Under the pieces are notes generated by a model that did not search any database, was not told where the DNA came from, and saw only the letters and a program-made list of their open reading frames with translations. DNA of 35,696 nt from a virus. Of this stretch, positions 4,090 to 18,847 are shown in pieces. The stretch is from the IMG/VR virus record IMGVR_UViG_3300034065_000148. One strand, 5' to 3'. The position numbers and the translations under genes were made by a program. Position 1 is the first letter of the stretch; each line of letters starts with the position of its first letter.

Positions 4090-6197
4090 TGCATTGCTCC
4101 TTGGGGCGCAGCTTGTGGGCCAGCTCCAACAGGTTGTTGATTAGTTGGAGGCGCAGCGTTTCCGCCAGCTCCGCTATTATTTAATAAGCTCTCTTGTTGT
4201 TGCCGATCGATATCAAGTTGACGATCTATGTGGTCTTGCTCAGCTTGGAATATTGTGGCCGCATCTTTTTGGTCATGTTTCATGAGCTCAATTGCTAGTT
4301 GAGTTTTCTGTTCCATTGCAGCGATGCGCTCTTTAGACATTAGCTCTAAACTCTTATTCTCAATGACCTTAGTGCTGGCATCCAACTCTTGAGATAGTTT
4401 TTGGATCATCGTACTCATCTGGGTCATTTGTTGCTTAGCTTGGGGTGGGATTGGATCGCCTTCGTCATCTGATGTAATTTGAGGAGGAAGTGAACGCTTG
4501 ATTCTATCTGCAATTTCAGAAGACCCAGGCCAATCCATGTTCCTTACTAATATATCTCCAGCCATTTGCATTAACTGTGGCGCAGCCTTTGTAAGATCAA
4601 GCATCGATCCAACAGCCTCTTGACGCTTAGTCTGAAAACTTGGTCCAGTATCTACGGTGCAATCGTATGTTCCAGCGTCTAAGAAATGAGTTTTCTTATC
4701 GCCGCCAGGGCCCGGGATAAGTTGATTGATCTCTTGCATTTTAACTTCGCCATCTTCACCTATTATCCTCACCGCTTGAGCTGAGCTATAAATTTCAGGA
4801 ATCCAATTGATTAATATTCGACCTGCATGTCTTAGGGAGCGTGAGAGATTATCTATAAAATGAAAGTTAGAAATCTGTGATTGACTGTTACGTCTTTGAA
4901 TTGCAATGCCTGATTGTTCATTGGATCTGTTGCCCAAAGATGCGTCATAAATTCCAGTAACAGCTTTCAACTCGTCAGAAGCTTGTTGCCTCTCAACTGT
5001 AATGGACTGAACCTGAGGTTCGAACTGAGTTCTAGCCGGAGGTGGAACTGCGATGCCTCCGATAGTCTTTGGCTTATATTGAAGGAATGAGTGGTTTTTA
5101 AAGTTGGCTGACTTCCAAATATCTTCATAGCCTTCAAACTGTCCTTCAGCTCCAATGAACGGAGCTTTAGGTGCAAGGGCTATCATTTCGGTCGCAGCAG
5201 AAGCATAGTAGTTGTACATACGCTGTGGGTCTTTAGCGTTACGGACTATGCCGGATAATATCCTTCGACCTTCGACTATGAATTCCTCGCCTATTACCGG
5301 GATGATTGGAATCCATTGGCCATGAATCTCTGTCTTATCTAGAACTTCAATACCGTTAATCTTTGCCCATTTAATCTTAGGAACTAAAGATTTACGCTCT
5401 GAAATTACTCTTAAACCATCAGGTAATTTATCTGGCAGATCTTTTTTCTCTACACACCTTTTGTCAGATAGTAAGCATAGTTCTACTTCTTCCCAAACCT
5501 TATAGTAATACTCTGCAACACGCACTGCTTCGGCATTGATGAACATGCCTTGGTTATCGCCTAACGATGACCAATCACTCATCCCAGATAGCTTTGCATC
5601 AGGGAATTGAACCTGGAACTCATCACGAGACATATCGTCAAAGATGAATCCCCACTGGCAATCTGAACCATCAGGCTCTTGGTAAAAAGGATCCAGGTAA
5701 ACTGAAAATCTATCTTTAATACGTTTGATTAATATTTCTTGTTGGAACGACATAGGATCGGAGTAATCAGTAACGATCCTAAAATAACCGATGCCAGAAG
5801 ACGCTGCGTATTCAAAAGCTGTGTCGTATGCGATATCAGCATGAGAATTGTATTCAATGTGTCTTATCATTCCCTGTAGTATTTTTGCGGTATCAACTGT
5901 GGCTTTAGAATCGCATGGGTTAACTTTGATAGAAGGTCTATTTTGACGTTGATCATTTGTGACTTGTCTTATGAATTGGGGCAAACGATTGACTGTTAAA
6001 CAAGGACGCATATCTAGCATCCGTTGATTTCTGATTTCCATTGGCCATTGTTCGCCGGTCAGGAACTGCTGATCTTCTAATTCTTGACGTCTATTTTCTG
6101 TTTCGGCTTCGACGGCGACTTGAAAGCGTTGCTTAGCAAGCTTTATTAACTCCTCATCACTGGAGGGATCTAAATCACGTTTTTCATTTAAGTCCAT
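4086..6197 (-). CDS. Portal protein (P22 gp1-like)
   Basis: 703 aa. Motifs QWPMEIRNQR...RPCLTVNRLPQFIRQVTNDQRQNRPSIKVNP are typical of P22-type portals, and the C-terminal barrel region is Q-rich. ATGA overlap with the scaffold gene. Confidence 0.9.
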   Translation of the reverse strand: MDLNEKRDLDPSSDEELIKLAKQRFQVAVEAETENRRQELEDQQFLTGEQWPMEIRNQRMLDMRPCLTVNRLPQFIRQVTNDQRQNRPSIKVNPCDSKATVDTAKILQGMIRHIEYNSHADIAYDTAFEYAASSGIGYFRIVTDYSDPMSFQQEILIKRIKDRFSVYLDPFYQEPDGSDCQWGFIFDDMSRDEFQVQFPDAKLSGMSDWSSLGDNQGMFINAEAVRVAEYYYKVWEEVELCLLSDKRCVEKKDLPDKLPDGLRVISERKSLVPKIKWAKINGIEVLDKTEIHGQWIPIIPVIGEEFIVEGRRILSGIVRNAKDPQRMYNYYASAATEMIALAPKAPFIGAEGQFEGYEDIWKSANFKNHSFLQYKPKTIGGIAVPPPARTQFEPQVQSITVERQQASDELKAVTGIYDASLGNRSNEQSGIAIQRRNSQSQISNFHFIDNLSRSLRHAGRILINWIPEIYSSAQAVRIIGEDGEVKMQEINQLIPGPGGDKKTHFLDAGTYDCTVDTGPSFQTKRQEAVGSMLDLTKAAPQLMQMAGDILVRNMDWPGSSEIADRIKRSLPPQITSDDEGDPIPPQAKQQMTQMSTMIQKLSQELDASTKVIENKSLELMSKERIAAMEQKTQLAIELMKHDQKDAATIFQAEQDHIDRQLDIDRQQQESLLNNSGAGGNAAPPTNQQPVGAGPQAAPQGAMQ

Positions 6198-14402: not shown

Positions 14403-15218
14403 ATGTCTGGGGAGATTACTGTCACTGTGCCTAAATGGGATTATTTTCAACCTAAAAGTATAAGAGAACGAAATCCATATTGGTTTAGAATCAACAAAGA
14501 CATGACTAACTCATCTGGCCTTGTTGGTTTGAGCCCGGCCCAAAAATGGGCTTGGGTTTGCCTTCTGGGCTTGTGTTGTTCACAAGATTCAAAGACAATT
14601 AAGTTTCGCCCCAACCGACTTGCATGCATAGCTAACGTTGATGAAAAGTCAATTTTAGAAATGCTTGAAATCCTTAAAGAAAACCACACCATTGAATTTA
14701 AAACTGAGTCCACTACATTTAAAACTGAGTCCACTACACCTACAATACAAAACAATACAATACAAAACAATACAACTACCTTTCCACAGAGCCTCAAAAA
14801 TGAGGCATCTGTGACCGTGTGGTCTTCTTACTCTTCTAGCTTTAAGGCTCGATACAAAGTTGAGCCCAAAAGAAACGCTACGGTTAACTCTCAGATTACT
14901 AATCTAATAAAAAGGCTTGGAGAAGAGCACGCTATCGAAGTAGTTAAGTTTTATGTCAGTCACAATGACCGTTGGTATGTAAGACAGGGCCACTCTATAG
15001 GTATTTGTCTTAAGGACTGTGAAAAGCTTTTTATGGAATGGTCTAGCGGTAAGAAAGTTACTTCAGTAACAGCAGCGGCTACCGAATCAATGGATCACAA
15101 TGCATCTGTGGTTTCTAATTATTTAAAAAAATCAGAACAAAGAGAAATAGAAAGGGAAGTTAATGAAAGCAGAATTCTTGAAGCGTCTAGCGATACTCGC
15201 TCAAATTTGCCATCATAA
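14403..15218 (+). CDS. Replisome organizer / origin-binding protein (SPP1 G38P / DnaD-like N-terminal domain)
   Basis: N-terminus YWFRINKDMTNSSGLVGLSPAQKWAWVCLLGL resembles the phage replisome-organizer N-domain. It is followed by a G39P-like loader gene and contains internal tandem repeats. Confidence 0.55.
   Translation: MSGEITVTVPKWDYFQPKSIRERNPYWFRINKDMTNSSGLVGLSPAQKWAWVCLLGLCCSQDSKTIKFRPNRLACIANVDEKSILEMLEILKENHTIEFKTESTTFKTESTTPTIQNNTIQNNTTTFPQSLKNEASVTVWSSYSSSFKARYKVEPKRNATVNSQITNLIKRLGEEHAIEVVKFYVSHNDRWYVRQGHSIGICLKDCEKLFMEWSSGKKVTSVTAAATESMDHNASVVSNYLKKSEQREIEREVNESRILEASSDTRSNLPS
14697..14771. repeat. Tandem direct repeats inside the replication gene: 2 x 21 bp followed by 2 x 15 bp (candidate origin iterons)
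   Basis: TTTAAAACTGAGTCCACTACA at 14697-14717 and 14718-14738. ACAATACAAAACAAT at 14742-14756 and 14757-14771. All copies are perfect. Confidence 0.85.
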
Positions 15219-15638: not shown

Positions 15639-16069
15639 AAGGGAAGGTTTTTATGGACGGTATAGTTTTACTTATAGCGGTCGTATTTTTAATACTAGCC
15701 GCTTATCTTTTTGTAAGTAGAAACGATGGGGCATCAAAAGAATTAAAAGAGACGACATCAGATTTGAAAGCATCTCTTAAAATTGTTCAGGATACTTTAG
15801 ACAAAGTAAACGAATCTAATTCAGAACTTGTTCAAGAATTAAAAGCAATCAAAACTGTATCTGATGGTTTATTCGCTGATCATGGAAAGCGAATATCCGA
15901 TATTGAAAACAAAAAGCCACTCACTCAGCTAAACGATATTAATTTGAGATTTAAAGAGCCTCTGAAGGTTTCTATTATTTACAGAGAAGCTATGAAAAAG
16001 TTACCCGAGATTCCAGCTCACATGAATGGTAAAATGCCTTTGATTAAACGAGCGGGGTTAATACCGTGA
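15635..16069 (+). CDS. Membrane-anchored coiled-coil protein
   Basis: 144-aa ORF with the N-terminal TM segment IVLLIAVVFLILAAYLFV followed by charged helical sequence. Confidence 0.6.
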   Translation: MKGKVFMDGIVLLIAVVFLILAAYLFVSRNDGASKELKETTSDLKASLKIVQDTLDKVNESNSELVQELKAIKTVSDGLFADHGKRISDIENKKPLTQLNDINLRFKEPLKVSIIYREAMKKLPEIPAHMNGKMPLIKRAGLIP

Positions 16070-16368
16070 TTAGACATTTAATTAAACCACTACGAGAACA
16101 AATTTTAGTTGAACTAGCAGACCCAGAAGAGAAAACTTTCGGTGGAATTATTATTCCCGAAACTGCTCAAGAGAAACCAAGAAAAGCTACTGTGATTGCA
16201 GTAGGAGAAGGTTGGCATAATGAGAAAAACACTAAAGTTATTCCTCTAGGAGTAAAGCCTGGGGATAAGATTTTAATCGGCACAAATATGAAGGGCACAG
16301 ACTTAACTTTAAGAGGGAAGAAATACGAAATGATTAGAGAGAATTATATTTTTGCGGTGCTAACATGA
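16066..16368 (+). CDS. groES: Co-chaperonin GroES (Cpn10) homolog
   Basis: IKPLREQILVE...EEKTFGGIIIPETAQEKPRKATVIAVGEG...LGVKPGDKILIG...YEMIRENYIFAVL is collinear with bacterial GroES, including the mobile loop. GTG start with GTGA overlap. Confidence 0.85.
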   Translation: MIRHLIKPLREQILVELADPEEKTFGGIIIPETAQEKPRKATVIAVGEGWHNEKNTKVIPLGVKPGDKILIGTNMKGTDLTLRGKKYEMIRENYIFAVLT

Positions 16369-17042
16369 GTGAATATCAATTCACAAATGCATGGTTTTCT
16401 CCACTAGTTCAAAGTGTGTGGAACATGATTGTTCCAATGGATGCACCGAAAAGATTCTTAGAGATTGGATCTTTTGAAGGTCGAAGTACGACATGGTTTA
16501 TAAACAAATTTGCAAGACAATGGGACATAGAAGTCCATTGCATTGATTCATGGGCAGGCTGTTCCGATAATGCATTAATGGAAGTTGATTTCAATGCATC
16601 GGAAAATAGATTTAAACACAATATGGAAATAGCTACAAAAAATAATCCATTTAAAACAGATCTTCATGTTCATAAAGGTACTTCAGAAAGTGAATTAATA
16701 AGGCTTTGCGCGAATGGATATCTTAATTATTTTGATGTCATTTACGTCGATGCAAATCACGAAGCTGCGGAGTGTTTGTCTGATGCCGTTCTCGCATGGA
16801 AGCTTTTAAAAATGCACGGGCTTATGATTTTTGATGATTACATTTTTGCAGTTCCCAATAGACCAAGGTGGGATGTTCCTAAAACTGCGATTGATGCTTT
16901 CTTAAATATTCACTGTAACGATGCGCATTTGATAAACGCTCCAAATCAGCAGGTATATGTGAAGAAAATTAAAGAGGGTGATTTGGTTTGGGCCCATAAG
17001 GCTCCAGTGTCTAAATCAGGTTCAAAACCTGAGGGAAAATGA
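16365..17042 (+). CDS. Class I SAM-dependent methyltransferase (O-methyltransferase/Methyltransf_24-like)
   Basis: FLEIGSFEGRST (motif I-like), IYVDANHE, and GLMIFDDY. Confidence 0.65.
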   Translation: MSEYQFTNAWFSPLVQSVWNMIVPMDAPKRFLEIGSFEGRSTTWFINKFARQWDIEVHCIDSWAGCSDNALMEVDFNASENRFKHNMEIATKNNPFKTDLHVHKGTSESELIRLCANGYLNYFDVIYVDANHEAAECLSDAVLAWKLLKMHGLMIFDDYIFAVPNRPRWDVPKTAIDAFLNIHCNDAHLINAPNQQVYVKKIKEGDLVWAHKAPVSKSGSKPEGK

Positions 17043-17206: not shown

Positions 17207-17532
17207 GCTTCTTTAAGCCTAGCGATTTTTATGACATGGAAATTGGCTCAGCATCCAAAAATCCTGGCCTAAATTTCTGTGATTTAGCGGCAATTAGGGC
17301 TAATGAAAAACTTATTGGAGCAGAAATGAACGGTAATGAAGAAAAACTCAGAGACAGATGTTCTGAATTAGAACAGGCCCTTTTTATGGTCCTTTGCTCA
17401 ACGTTAGTATCAACGGATGAACATGACTGGAGAAACTGCAAACAACCTAGTTGTGTAGTTGCTCGTAAAGCTTTAAAAATTGATACAGGTCCGGAACCAG
17501 TTGAAAAAGAAACTATAAAAGGAGAAAAATAA
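17203..17532 (+). CDS. Hypothetical protein
   Basis: 109-aa ORF, translationally coupled to its neighbours. Confidence 0.6.
   Translation: MSFFKPSDFYDMEIGSASKNPGLNFCDLAAIRANEKLIGAEMNGNEEKLRDRCSELEQALFMVLCSTLVSTDEHDWRNCKQPSCVVARKALKIDTGPEPVEKETIKGEK
17483..17501 (+). promoter_or_regulatory. Dyad motif copy ATACAGGTCCGGAACCAGT
   Basis: ACAGG-N7-CCAGT, ending 30 nt before the start codon at 17532. Confidence 0.5.
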
Positions 17533-17819
17533 TGGCAAAGAAGTACGTGATAGTAAGAACTTATTCGGCTGGAGTATTTGCCGGATATCTTAAAGCAAGA
17601 AAAGGGCAAGAAGTTACTTTAACTAATGCTAGGCGCCTTTGGTATTGGAAAGGTGCTGCTTCATTGAGTCAACTCGCGGTCGATGGAGTTTCTTCCCCTC
17701 AAGAATGTAAATTTCCCGCTGAAGTTTCTAATGTTGAATTATTACAAGCGATAGAGATTTTAGACGTTACTAAAAAGGCTCAAAAATCTATTGCATCGGT
17801 GGCGGTATGGAAGAGTTAA
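17532..17819 (+). CDS. Conserved-looking small phage protein of unknown function
   Basis: 95-aa ORF, VIVRTYSAGVFAGYL...NARRLWYWKGAASLSQLA. GGAG RBS. Confidence 0.65.
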   Translation: MAKKYVIVRTYSAGVFAGYLKARKGQEVTLTNARRLWYWKGAASLSQLAVDGVSSPQECKFPAEVSNVELLQAIEILDVTKKAQKSIASVAVWKS

Positions 17820-18073
17820 AAAATGACGGCTCCGGCTCCGGCTACGGCTACGGCGACGGCTACGGCTCCGGCTACGGCTCCGGCTCCGGCTACGGCTCCG
17901 GCTCCGGCTACGGCTACGGCTCCGGCTCCGGCTACGGCTCCGGCTACGGCGACGGCTACGGCTCCGGCTACGGCTACGGCTCCGGCTCCGGCTACGGCTA
18001 CGGCGACGGCTCCGGCTACGGCTCCGGCTACGGCTACGGCTCCGGCTCCGGCTACGGCTACGGCGACGGCTGA
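17807..18073 (+). CDS. Gly-Tyr-Ser-Asp dipeptide-repeat protein, MEELKND + (G-[YSD])40-G
   Basis: ATG preceded by GGTGG, overlapping the upstream gene by 13 nt. The stop falls exactly at the end of the repeat array. The choice of frame is uncertain. Confidence 0.5.
   Translation: MEELKNDGSGSGYGYGDGYGSGYGSGSGYGSGSGYGYGSGSGYGSGYGDGYGSGYGYGSGSGYGYGDGSGYGSGYGYGSGSGYGYGDG
17828..18070. repeat. 243-bp perfect hexanucleotide array built only from GGCTCC, GGCTAC and GGCGAC
   Basis: 40 hexamers plus a final GGC. About 70% or more GC inside an AT-rich genome. Long ORFs are present in two plus frames and one minus frame. Confidence 0.95.
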
Positions 18074-18077
18074 TTTA

Positions 18078-18096
18078 TGAAAGGTTTCCAACCTGT
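18078..18096 (+). promoter_or_regulatory. Dyad motif copy TGAAAGGTTTCCAACCTGT (weaker left half)
   Basis: AAAGG-N7-CCTGT followed by TGAAAAG, as in the other copies. Ends 22 nt before the methylase start. Confidence 0.4.
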
Positions 18097-18118: not shown

Positions 18119-18847
18119 TTGCTCTATTTAGGGGATTGTTTGGAGGTTATGAAAAGCTTAGACGATAAGAGCATTGATATGGTTCTAACGGACCCTCCTT
18201 ACGGTACTACGGCTTGTAAGTGGGATACTGTTATCCCTTTTGAACCTATGTGGCGTGAGCTTAAAAGAATAACCAAAGGTCCTGTTCTTTTATTCGGAAG
18301 TGAACCGTTTTCTAGCTCGCTAAGAATAAGTTGTAGGGATTGGTATAGATATGACTGGGTTTGGAAAAAACAAAGAGCTGGTGGGTTTCCAATGGCCAAC
18401 AAGAGACCGCTTAAAAACATTGAACTAATCTCTGTTTTTTCTTTTAAGCAGTCTGCCTATTATCCTCAAGGCCTTGTCGATTGCCTTATAGATCAACGAA
18501 GAAAATCAAAATTATGCGCTTTCGTTAAATCGATAAAAAACCATGGTGGGATTCAAACTAAAACCAATTTTCCTAAAATGTTAATTGAAGGGTTTAAACA
18601 GGATTTTAAAACGGTTCATCCTACCCAAAAACCAGTCCCACTCCTCGAATACCTAATCAAGACCTATACCCTCGAAGGCGAAACTGTCCTAGATTTCACG
18701 ATGGGCAGCGGCTCGACTGGGGTTGCTTGTAAAAATTTAAACCGTAAATTTATAGGCATTGAAAAAGATCAAACCTATTTCGATATAGCGAAGGCTCGCA
18801 TTGCAGGTTCGAGACCTAGCGTTCAATTGGATATGATGAGTGTTTAA
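18119..18847 (+). CDS. DNA methyltransferase (beta-class N6-adenine/N4-cytosine, orphan)
   Basis: DMVLTDPPYG (motif IV) lies N-terminal to FTMGSGSTGVACKNLNRKFIGIEKD (motif I). TTG start. Confidence 0.85.
   Translation: MLYLGDCLEVMKSLDDKSIDMVLTDPPYGTTACKWDTVIPFEPMWRELKRITKGPVLLFGSEPFSSSLRISCRDWYRYDWVWKKQRAGGFPMANKRPLKNIELISVFSFKQSAYYPQGLVDCLIDQRRKSKLCAFVKSIKNHGGIQTKTNFPKMLIEGFKQDFKTVHPTQKPVPLLEYLIKTYTLEGETVLDFTMGSGSTGVACKNLNRKFIGIEKDQTYFDIAKARIAGSRPSVQLDMMSV

Follow-up and report, generated by a model that had tools for sequence, protein, structure and literature searches.

Introduction

Proteins that combine a compact beta-rich domain with a Gly-rich low-complexity segment are known from several systems. 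The Sm proteins D1 and D3 carry (Arg-Gly)n dipeptide tails, and Hfq of Acinetobacter has a Gly-rich C-terminus. Plant glycine-rich RNA-binding proteins such as NtGR-RBP1 join an RRM to a Gly/Tyr/Ser tail (PMC4117745), and the linker of E. coli SSB is a Gly-rich disordered segment on a small nucleic-acid-binding domain (bioRxiv 10.1101/2022.01.17.476650). The published survey of prokaryotic low-complexity regions does not contain the class of sequences considered here, and aromatic residues were found to be under-represented in such regions (PMC6821194).

The window analysed in this work is a stretch of viral DNA of 35,696 nucleotides (IMG/VR record IMGVR_UViG_3300034065_000148), in which a gene of the DUF6948 family is overlapped at its 3' end by an ORF composed mostly of Gly-X dipeptides. 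This pair resembles the proteins listed above in that a compact, predicted beta-rich domain is combined with a Gly-rich low-complexity segment containing aromatic residues, and it shares strict Gly-X dipeptide repeats with Sm D1/D3. It differs from the Gly-rich tails of these proteins in that the repeat is normally a separate polypeptide made from an overlapping ORF, and in that the X positions are occupied, with a strict periodicity of 2, by Tyr, Ser or Asp and not by Arg or Lys, which makes the repeat segment acidic. Unlike Sm proteins and Hfq, DUF6948 does not match the LSm sequence family, and its binding to nucleic acids is only putative. In the literature searched we found no paper describing the DUF6948/Gly-X pair, nor one on DUF7666 or on glycine/tyrosine-rich phage proteins, in agreement with an earlier reading of this DNA made from the sequence only, which knew of no characterised phage counterpart.

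Results

The DUF6948 gene occupies positions 17532..17819 of the plus strand and encodes 95 aa. It matches the Pfam profile PF22253 with E = 5.5e-34 (116.6 bits, the cutoff being 27) over profile positions 1-85 of 85, and the family forms at least 8000 clusters in the metagenome protein database. The protein is basic, with a net charge of roughly +7 by residue count, and its AlphaFold model (pLDDT 95.3) contains five strands and two helices (residues 45-51 and 81-89). DUF6948 is thus confidently modelled as a basic five-stranded barrel with Sm/LSm proteins as the best structural matches. All the top 50 Foldseek matches in the PDB are Sm/LSm, with E values of only about 1e-3 and TM-scores of 0.47-0.60 relative to the query and up to 0.70 relative to the target. 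In the Sm/LSm/Hfq fold a strongly bent antiparallel sheet of five strands comes after an N-terminal helix; the model lacks this helix, and its two helices are additional to the fold. The Pfam scan at E <= 0.01 returned DUF6948 only, the LSM family with its Sm1/Sm2 motifs being absent, and a sequence-profile search of the PDB gave nothing significant and no Sm protein. The predicted resemblance to the Sm fold is, therefore, modest.

The repeat ORF (17807..18073, plus strand, 88 aa) consists of the leader MEELKND, 81 array residues and the stop codon TGA (18071-18073) located directly after the last GGC of the array; these boundaries agree with those assigned from the sequence earlier. Its ATG (17807-17809) takes the first base from the end of the Val-92 codon (GTA) and the other two from the start of the Trp-93 codon (TGG) of DUF6948, the stop codon TAA of which occupies 17817-17819, giving a 13-nt overlap (17807..17819, plus strand). 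Trp-93 is invariant in our alignment (A1). Just 5' of the ATG, within the DUF6948 coding sequence, lies a G-rich stretch, GGTGGCGG (17798..17805, plus strand), which by its sequence may serve as a Shine-Dalgarno-like element; in the relatives GAGG, GGAG or GGTGG motifs are found 4-10 nt 5' of the junction ATG. The -13 overlap recurs in 62 of 104 relatives, and an overlap of -4 (ATGA or GTGA) is present in 17, the listed examples of which keep the ATG at -13 too. The junction start is ATG in 82 of 104 loci, and an ATG, GTG or TTG start is available to the repeat ORF in 104 of 105. Such an organization strongly suggests that DUF6948 and the repeat gene are translationally coupled and made together.

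The same junction might be read as a site of programmed -1 ribosomal frameshifting, in which case a DUF6948-(Gly-X)n fusion would be produced and the array would represent the C-terminal tail of DUF6948. In 97 of 105 loci the repeat lies in the +2/-1 frame with respect to DUF6948, a natural in-frame fusion is known once (P0197/L119), and an A-rich run, ACT AAA AAG, is located about 40 nt upstream in the window. The -1 relation, however, arises automatically from an ATG built on xxA+TGG, other relative frames are found at the remaining 8 loci, and almost every locus has the start codon and the upstream SD-like motif described above. Moreover, no X XXY YYZ heptamer is present in the 13-nt overlap of the window (A TGG AAG AGT TAA), the -1 frame of CV-1-33 is open just 3 codons upstream of the ATG, and the P0197/L119 fusion, known from a single short contig, looks like a 1-nt indel. 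These features make frameshifting a very unlikely explanation of the locus.

The array itself (17828..18070, plus strand, 243 bp) comprises 40 hexamers of the form GGC-(TAC/TCC/GAC) and a final GGC, with GGCTAC present 19 times, GGCTCC 17 times and GGCGAC 4 times, and encodes G41 Y19 S17 D4. Our recount upheld the original description of a perfect array free of synonymous variation. Tandem Repeats Finder reports a single period-6 array (17826-18071, 41 copies), and a 15-nt pattern taken from the array has 39 matches in the window against 0.04 expected by chance. As none of these matches falls outside the array, the window has no second copy of it, and a variable region of a diversity-generating retroelement was rejected. 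A collagen-like (GXY)n repeat, which has period 3, was rejected given the period of 2 aa (6 nt), and so was an RTX repeat (GGXGXDXUX, period 9 with Gly at positions 1, 2 and 4), since Gly takes every odd position of the array and Asp only even ones. The GC content of the array is 0.757, compared to 0.411 in the window and 0.39-0.41 in the flanks, which bears out the GC contrast pointed out before. Two further frames are open in the ORF list, also as previously stated, one on the plus strand (T/A/P) and one on the minus strand (A/V/G). No promoter or terminator signals above chance were detected around the array.

A higher-order repeat had been noticed in the window array, and the sequence confirms a recent 60-nt (10-dipeptide) duplication (17953..18071, plus strand), in which a 59-nt exact repeat starts at 17953 and again at 18013, at an offset of 60. 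This is the longest internal exact repeat of the array, and reads or k-mers of more than about 60 nt should therefore resolve the array. For the arrays as a class we rejected a conserved peptide motif of higher order, as the X residues follow one another almost at random (observed/expected ratio for neighbours 0.83-1.19).

The exact length and order of the window array are derived from one assembly, and the array might be thought to be a neutral microsatellite or an assembly artefact with open frames that are incidental. Indeed, k-mer assemblies break at the array (in Logan SRR23247739, which contains the same phage, the break is inside the array, 36 nt past the DUF6948 stop), contigs terminate in the array or just before it (9 of 28 from IMG/VR and 16 of 80 from genomes), and N gaps interrupt it at two loci. 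On the other hand, an array with a longest internal repeat of this size is assemblable, and the same array class in the same position and frame and with the same start architecture is found in about 115 loci, including isolate phages and a complete chromosome, and its composition is conserved whichever codon set is used. As far as the array class is concerned, this explanation is already refuted, and we consider its probability to be negligible.

The pair class is defined here as a (Gly-X)n ORF, X being mostly Tyr, Ser or Asp, that adjoins DUF6948 and has a start overlapping the 3' end of the latter; the locus of the window, with its ATG at 17807 in the Trp-93 codon and the 13-nt overlap, belongs to this class. 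An adjacent (Gly-X)n ORF is present at all of the approximately 115 evaluable DUF6948 loci from viral contigs, cultured phages, MAGs and genomes; this sample covers relatives at least 37% identical to the query, so more distant members of the family might lack the partner. The array is located next to DUF6948 in 33 of 33 loci from IMG/VR and GenBank phages and in 73 of 73 genome or MAG loci that have more than 52 nt downstream of DUF6948, and in all 7 genome or MAG loci without the array the sequence ends within 52 nt after this gene. All three more distant loci, those of Pectobacterium phage Ymer, Vibrio phage IKEMa6-1 and an uncultured podovirus (MW202478), also contain the array, as do the loci L034-L037, L123 and L124. 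The pair thus occurs in phages and in prophages; the bins and genomes with paired loci are labelled as many bacterial phyla and include a complete bacterial chromosome (Nibricoccus sp., L095), chromosome-level MAGs and isolate phage genomes. The search for (GY/GS)n proteins beside the family of the 95-aa upstream gene, which had been suggested from the sequence, was therefore decisive: the gene is DUF6948 and the pairing was found at every evaluable locus. Judged by its gene context, the array is established as the coding body of a small phage gene kept as a fixed partner of DUF6948.

Cultured phages that carry the pair are Pectobacterium phage Ymer, Ralstonia phage NK-7, Iodobacter phage PhiPLPE and Vibrio phage IKEMa6-1. 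The Met-Ala frame, which is the wrong one, was called for the array in MT192033 and MW202478.

The length of the array varies from 11 to 133 aa between loci, and both length and order differ between relatives with DUF6948 94-95% identical; identical arrays are nevertheless found in L036 and L037, which come from two independent metagenomes. A perfect short tandem repeat within a gene, a copy number varying between relatives and a recent duplication are features shared with simple-sequence contingency loci, and the array had been proposed to be one of these. This proposal was not sustained, because the 6-nt unit lies in frame within the ORF and slippage cannot switch the frame on or off, and because of the identity of the L036 and L037 arrays. 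In contrast to contingency loci, the array class is conserved across phyla and is not lineage-specific.

The mean composition of 105 arrays is G 0.50, S 0.18, Y 0.14 and D 0.12, and Ser, Tyr or Asp occupies about 87% of the X positions. These arrays use nine codon sets (GGC+NNC in 42 arrays, GGC+NNT in 34, GGT+NNC in 14, GGG+NNC in 8 and others in 7), across which the mean pairwise composition cosine in the Gly-X frame is 0.94. Four of the other frames have values of 0.56-0.65, and the fifth, with 0.90, is full of stops. Since the composition is conserved across the nine codon sets and no other frame matches it without stops, the Gly-X protein appears to be the selected product, and this comparison identifies Gly-X, the frame favoured by the sequence-only reading, as the coding frame under selection. 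Synonymous variation within the Gly-X frame is found in the diverged arrays L002, L012, L014 and L029.

The codons of the array are less easily explained. All 81 of them in the window are GGC, TAC, TCC or GAC (log10 P = -59.6 under the phage's own codon usage), and these codons are non-preferred in this genome (GGC 22%, TAC 32%, TCC 6%, GAC 26%). Translational selection for optimal codons in this phage was rejected, as the major head gene prefers GGA/GGT, TAT and GAT, and TCC is absent there. A protein-only model leaves these facts unaccounted for, as the codon set of the array differs from the preference of both the genome and the major head gene. The uniformity is class-wide: of the 105 arrays, 40 are perfect and 70 have a uniformity of 0.95 or more, Gly is encoded by GGC in 78 whatever the GC content of the flanks, and X codons end almost only in C or T. 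Lineages in which DUF6948 is synonymously different at 48-63% of the conserved codons, which is near saturation, still have the same four codons in common. Recent slippage alone, which had been offered as one of the explanations, does not account for this uniformity, and a secondary nucleotide-level constraint may act on the array beside the selection on the protein.

A stronger version of this idea is selection on the DNA or RNA itself, which was also put forward earlier. The selected object might then be an origin- or iteron-like element, a tract prone to recombination or to G-quadruplex formation, or an RNA element, the peptide being a by-product. The extreme uniformity of the codons, their atypical choice, their persistence across lineages with near-saturated synonymous divergence in the adjoining gene and the prevalence of GGC regardless of flank GC all speak for it, as does the location of the array within a replication/recombination block. 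However, what the nine codon sets share is the amino-acid composition and not a nucleotide motif, the start codon, frame and stop of the ORF are conserved, and in-frame fusions to globular domains occur. G3-run motifs are limited to the 8 GGG-type arrays, and the array RNA folds less stably than shuffled controls (z = +5.5), on which ground RNA structure was rejected. Nucleic acid as the main target of selection is, in our opinion, improbable.

The use of one codon per amino acid, with X codons ending almost only in C or T, together with the position of the ORF upstream of early genes, would also suit a translational sensor or regulator gating the downstream genes according to whether four tRNAs of the G34/Q34 type (Gly-GCC, Tyr, Ser-GGA and Asp) are charged or intact. 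Yet the downstream genes are not conserved, the ORF is not followed by any terminator-like or attenuator-like structure, lengths of 11-133 codons are unlike those of known leader peptides, and the fusions of the array to globular domains imply a role for the protein. We regard this role as extremely doubtful, even more so than frameshifting.

In L003, L030, L077, P0127 and P0149 extra domains are fused in frame to the array, which stays in its usual place after DUF6948; fusions of the array with DUF7666 occur at other sites, and one with DUF6948 itself is found in the contig mentioned above. These fusions mark the array as a protein module. In L036 and L037 an HNH endonuclease is inserted, and the ancestral ..VWQS* junction reappears at the 3' end of the HNH gene, so that the repeat ORF keeps its start. 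Where the neighbours are recognisable, the pair is located in the early replication and recombination block; those that can be annotated include SSB, RecT, YqaJ, AAA_24, Gp157, DnaD_N, helicases, HNH and HTH proteins and DNA methylases. A conserved third gene was rejected, as the neighbours vary both upstream and downstream.

In Riemerella phage CRP6 a homologous C-terminal domain carries a BspA-type leucine-rich repeat in the position of the array. This replacement is consistent with the possibility that the array is a rapidly evolvable binding or decoy module, varied by slippage and directed against host proteins, with DUF6948 as only a co-expressed helper; defence factors, proteases or tyrosine kinases of the host might be bound or saturated via the four-letter Gly/Tyr/Ser/Asp sticky surface. 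The unconstrained length and order of the arrays, which differ even between close relatives, and the portability of the array across several unrelated small domains fit this possibility. The minimal codes of synthetic antibody libraries (Tyr/Ser/Asp/Ala or Tyr/Ser) resemble the Tyr/Ser/Asp/Gly code and may be counted in its favour. Nevertheless, PADLOC and defence-related families gave no match, identical arrays exist in two separate samples, and the strict association of the array with DUF6948 and its coupling to this gene point to a function in common. We therefore consider the decoy role unlikely.

The repeat protein of the window belongs to no family in Pfam, PHROGs, NCBIfam or PADLOC, the sole match being a sub-threshold compositional one to TrAA12, and a direct homology search, which is weak because the query is of low complexity, yielded only 112 weak matches and none to a named protein. 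Related arrays have weak Pfam matches to sulfur globule proteins (SGP), keratin-associated proteins (KRTAP) and TrAA12, with the gathering cutoff reached only by KRTAP in one protein; these matches are compositional and give no evidence of homology. SGP, KRTAP and the silk fibroin heavy chain are similar to the arrays in their high Gly/Tyr content, and silk shares the Gly-X dipeptide rhythm as well. A crystalline silk-fibroin-like (GA/GS)n protein was rejected: the high share of Asp (12%) and the low share of Ala (0.7%) speak against beta-crystallites of the silk type, MEELKND does not constitute a signal peptide, and the context is that of early and not of structural genes. The array of Ralstonia phage NK-7 is annotated as 'fibroin heavy chain-like'.

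AlphaFold gave a pLDDT of 35.8 and no secondary structure for the repeat protein, which, in a single-sequence run, is a weak prediction of disorder. Lys and Arg together make up 0.25% of the arrays and Asp and Glu 12.7%; Tyr runs are short, mostly of 1-2 residues, and Asp-Asp is under-represented. We infer with moderate confidence that the product is an intrinsically disordered acidic polypeptide in which Tyr "stickers" are evenly mixed among Gly/Ser "spacers". In being dominated by Gly, Ser and Tyr, with Tyr evenly dispersed, and in its predicted disorder it is similar to FUS-type prion-like domains, which follow a [G/S]Y[G/S] sticker-spacer grammar. It differs from them by the absence of Gln/Asn richness (in 105 arrays Asn accounts for 1.4% and Gln is outside the 14 commonest residues), by the strict G-X alternation and the net negative charge, and in being a stand-alone protein of 11-133 aa from bacterial viruses. 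The condensate or dityrosine chemistry brought up in the earlier reading is a putative property of this polypeptide.

Discussion

The data presented here support in part the interpretation that was derived from the sequence only. The explanation that we find reasonably probable is that DUF6948 and the Gly-X ORF constitute a translationally coupled two-gene module of early phage genes, in which the repeat acts as a flexible multivalent partner with Tyr "stickers"; its function is suggested by composition and by analogy. By this explanation, the repeat would be a flexible multivalent arm supplied as a separate chain; its scattered Asp charges and very low content of Lys and Arg would keep it soluble. 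It might work with the basic Sm-like barrel of DUF6948 in the way Gly-rich tails do with small nucleic-acid-binding domains, although the analogy is a weak one, and the arm could tune binding or drive higher-order assembly on phage nucleic acids or partner proteins. The length and order of the array would be free to vary, with turnover by slippage and segmental duplication homogenising the codons, while the G/Y/S/D composition would be held by selection.

A more far-reaching possibility, to which we give a low probability, is that DUF6948 and the Gly-X repeat form a pan-phage two-component organiser, undescribed in the literature searched. In such a system an Sm-like ring of DUF6948 would bind phage RNA or single-stranded DNA, and the separately encoded, slippage-tunable Gly/Tyr/Ser/Asp polymer would make a condensate-like hub or serve as a minimalist sticky binder of host factors, with both proteins acting at the stage of replication and recombination. 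The length and composition of the array would then be an evolvable dial, and the nucleotide-level constraint would keep one codon per residue.

Conclusions

Assembly breaks of one recurrent class in phage contigs are explained by the Gly-X arrays. The restriction to a single codon for each amino acid, retained despite saturated synonymous divergence, provides a clean test case for concerted evolution versus codon-level selection. If the coupled two-gene module is real, the repeat partner is a gene that annotation pipelines routinely miss, call in the wrong frame or lose at contig ends, and the pair would be tractable in experiments, as it comprises just two small genes and cultured phages with it are available for Pectobacterium, Ralstonia, Iodobacter and Vibrio. 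Sticker-spacer polymers have been studied mostly in eukaryotic condensates, and the module would add a bacterial-virus case of a pure Gly/Tyr/Ser/Asp low-complexity protein. It would also mean that an obligate partner exists for DUF6948, a phage gene family that ranks among the most widespread of the uncharacterised ones.

Results

A repeat ORF paired with DUF6948

The hexamer array occupies positions 17828–18070 of the window on the plus strand and is built of 19 GGCTAC, 17 GGCTCC and 4 GGCGAC units with a last GGC and no other units. Tandem Repeats Finder reported one period-6 array of 41 copies in the window, and all 39 matches of a 15-nt array-derived pattern fell within it (39/39; chance expectation 0.04). 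Its GC content is 0.757, with 0.411 for the window and 0.39–0.41 for the flanks. In the product of the repeat ORF (17807–18073, plus strand), MEELKND precedes (G-[Y/S/D])n, and the stop codon directly adjoins the 3' end of the array. The composition, GC-richness and ORF described in the sequence-only reading were confirmed, and both further open frames that it had noted across the array are present in the ORF listing. The array lies on the plus strand in the early block of what the portal, major head and head-closure genes identify as a tailed-phage genome. A 59-nt exact repeat with copies at 17953 and 18013 (offset 60) shows a recent duplication of 10 dipeptides within the array and, being the longest internal exact repeat, leaves the array resolvable by reads or k-mers longer than ~60 nt.

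Directly 5' of the repeat ORF stands the DUF6948 gene (17532–17819), whose 95-aa product gives a full-length match to PF22253 (E = 5.5e-34). The ATG of the repeat ORF (17807–17809) sits across the final base of the Val-92 codon and the initial two bases of the Trp-93 codon, so that the two genes overlap by 13 nt. Our initial DNA search matched Chlorobiaceae phage CV-1-33 across the array itself; there a DUF6948 homologue of 45% identity is followed by the same ATG-in-TGG overlap and then by MDGINYGYGDGDGSGDGSGYGSG..., with GGC, TAT, TCT and GAT as array codons, and the array is annotated by GenBank in the Met-Ala frame.

The pairing proved to be general: the ORF reading the array as Gly-Tyr/Ser/Asp dipeptides (Gly-X ORF) adjoins DUF6948 in every evaluable locus. 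It was adjacent in all 33 of the five GenBank phage and 28 IMG/VR loci, in 3/3 more distant relatives (Pectobacterium phage Ymer, Vibrio phage IKEMa6-1 and a podovirus) and in 73/73 of those loci whose downstream sequence exceeds 52 nt in a scan of 185,579 species genomes, which found 137 relatives, of which 80 loci were kept. The seven genome-scan loci without an array all terminate at most 52 nt past DUF6948. The scan labels include Acidobacteria, Beta- and Gammaproteobacteria, Firmicutes, Cyanobacteria, Verrucomicrobia, Planctomycetes, CPR, Nitrospirota, Bacteriovoracaceae and some archaeal bins, and a metagenome protein collection holds at least 8000 DUF6948 clusters at 90% identity. In podovirus MW202478 (L122 1213–1785, UOF77468) the array is upstream of DUF6948, not downstream, and is annotated in the Met-Ala frame. 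The annotations of L122, of L001 3079–3324 (MT192033 gene_25) and of L005 1189–1461 (PhiPLPE) miscall or miss the array: among these records the wrong Met-Ala frame is used, one merges that frame with DUF6948, and in another the array is unannotated. Contigs end in or just 5' of the array in 9/28 viral and 16/80 genome loci, and the Logan assembly of the window's phage stops 36 nt past the DUF6948 stop; Gly-X arrays are therefore a recurrent source of assembly breaks.

The junction is conserved as well. The Gly-X frame is +2/−1 relative to DUF6948 in 97/105 loci. Start codons are ATG in 82 loci, GTG in 16 and TTG in 6; in 62/104 loci the start precedes the last base of the DUF6948 stop by the same 13 nt, and 17 more of the 104 have an ATGA or GTGA overlap. 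Motifs like GAGG, GGAG or GGTGG stand 4–10 nt 5' of the start in relatives. In two essentially identical loci from different JGI metagenomes (L036 753–1163 and L037 673–1083) DUF6948 and the repeat ORF are separated by an inserted HNH_3 homing endonuclease gene. A second copy of the ancestral ..VWQS* terminus, including the ATG within it, stands at the 3' end of the HNH gene, and the repeat ORF thereby retains its embedded start.

Several loci carry structural variants. A second Gly-X ORF directly after the first, a tandem duplication of the repeat gene, was seen in L002 (3081–3300), L014 and L016. In L032 (~4324–4700), and also in L016, the Tyr/Ser/Asp reading changes frame mid-array, owing either to a frameshifted variant or to a misread base within the repeat.

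Frame selection and codon uniformity

Over 105 arrays the Gly-X composition is G 0.50, S 0.18, Y 0.14, D 0.12, F 0.016 and N 0.014, with K+R at 0.25%. The arrays use nine codon sets (GGC+NNC 42, GGC+NNT 34, GGT+NNC 14, GGG+NNC 8, others 7), over which the composition of the Gly-X frame has a mean pairwise cosine of 0.94. In four other frames residue identity shifts with the codon set (cosine 0.56–0.65; e.g., Thr/Pro to Met/Leu), and the fifth keeps its composition (cosine 0.90) solely because of abundant stops. The more diverged arrays (L002, L012, L014, L029) have ordinary synonymous variation in the Gly-X frame. Judged from these comparisons, Gly-X is the frame under selection. The data show that the gene pair with its overlapping start and stop is conserved, that the Gly-X frame is coding and that conservation is at the level of composition, not of sequence. 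The conserved frame, start and overlap, the motifs 5' of the start and the start retained beside the HNH insertion make a strong comparative case that the repeat gene is translated, and in coupling with DUF6948.

The uniformity of the codons requires a further consideration. In the window all 81 array codons are GGC, TAC, TCC or GAC. Across 25 other ORFs of this genome the respective shares of these codons within their synonymous families are 22%, 32%, 6% and 26%, and under that usage the observed uniformity has log10 P = −59.6. In this phage the array codons are neither genome-preferred nor the ones that the major head gene uses. Such uniformity characterises the class, being perfect in 40/105 arrays and at least 0.95 in 70/105; the Gly codon is GGC in 78/105, irrespective of flanking GC, and the third base of X codons is C or T, with A and G almost absent. 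The GGC/TAC/TCC/GAC set is common to the window, L035, L036 and L007, and in the adjacent DUF6948 gene of these four 48–63% of conserved codons differ synonymously. Under neutral concerted evolution the codon set would be expected to drift. Superimposed on protein-level selection there seems to be some constraint on codons or DNA, or else array exchange among related phages. RNA structure was ruled out as the constraint: shuffled versions fold more stably than the array (z = +5.5).

The arrays evolve through slippage and segmental duplication; relatives with 94–95% identical DUF6948 differ in array length and order. The array is not a classical contingency locus, the option raised from the sequence alone, since the 6-nt unit cannot switch frame and an identical array occurs in two independent metagenomes.

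The array as a protein module

In some phages the array, in its usual place after DUF6948, is fused in frame to an extra domain, N-terminal to it in L003, L030, L077 and P0127 and C-terminal in P0149. In the first three loci a C-terminal domain of ~150 aa follows, which found no match in Pfam, PHROG or NCBIfam. In Riemerella phage CRP6 a 'ribonuclease inhibitor' (L038 1297–1905) carries a homologous C-terminal domain with BspA-type leucine-rich repeats replacing the array, which hints at a binding role. A fusion of the array to DUF6948 itself, a single case on one contig (P0197/L119), looks like a 1-nt indel. DUF7666 proteins carry arrays too, without DUF6948 nearby, and adjoin recombination genes.

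Predicted properties and neighbourhood

The repeat protein is predicted to be disordered (single-sequence model, pLDDT 35.8, no secondary structure). Tyr, Ser and Asp follow one another in a nearly random mix (observed/expected 0.83–1.19 for array neighbours), Tyr runs are mostly 1–2 residues and Asp-Asp neighbours are rarer than expected, a pattern which we take to fit the sticker-spacer grammar of soluble low-complexity domains. The DUF6948 model is of high confidence (pLDDT 95.3) and shows a barrel of five strands together with two helices. Its best 50 PDB structure matches are all Sm/LSm, with E only ~1e-3 and TM 0.5–0.7; in the viral structure library DUF6948 proteins came top and cyanophage Sm-like-domain proteins next, weakly. 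We term it Sm-like in fold alone, because the Pfam scan gave no LSM-family match and the model has no N-terminal helix. By residue count DUF6948 is basic (net charge ~+7) and the repeat protein is ~−6.

The neighbours of the pair differ among loci; those that can be annotated belong to replication/recombination (SSB, RecT, YqaJ, AAA_24, Gp157, DnaD_N, helicases, HNH, HTH regulators and DNA methylases). In the window the module is bracketed by two methyltransferase genes, one for a Methyltransf_24 protein (16365–17042) and one for an N6/N4 DNA methylase (18119–18847), for which the ATG near 18150, after a GGAGG motif, is a more likely start than the listed TTG at 18119. A GroES/Cpn10 co-chaperonin homologue (16066–16368, Pfam E = 1.1e-24) lies in the early block three genes 5' of DUF6948. 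Within an ORF matching a PHROG without assigned function (14403–15218), a 21-bp direct repeat (ATTTAAAACTGAGTCCACTAC x2) followed directly by (TACAA)x7 (14696–14775) is reminiscent of iterons or a replication origin. The 35-kb contig L123 has a ProQ/FinO-domain RNA chaperone gene (1347–1838) two genes 5' of DUF6948; ProQ/FinO is not among the commonest neighbours at other loci.

Discussion

The Gly-X array is real, and the function of the repeat protein is putative. No family in Pfam, PHROG, NCBIfam or PADLOC covers the protein, such proteins are labelled "hypothetical" in source records, with a single "fibroin heavy chain-like", and the literature searched held no mention of DUF6948, DUF7666 or the array peptide strings in a phage context. 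The closest kinds are Gly/Tyr/Ser low-complexity domains and the Gly-rich tails of small nucleic-acid-binding folds, from which four features set the phage protein apart: its strict two-residue period, its acidity, its encoding by a coupled ORF of its own and its occurrence throughout phages.

DUF6948 and the repeat protein are probably co-produced, and the acidic, Tyr-studded flexible chain may work with the basic DUF6948 barrel. Gly-rich tails associated with SSB, Hfq, Sm D1/D3 and plant glycine-rich RNA-binding proteins offer a model for such a combination of chain and barrel; by this analogy, the repeat chain may tune binding or assemble multivalently, and it would do so as a separate chain.
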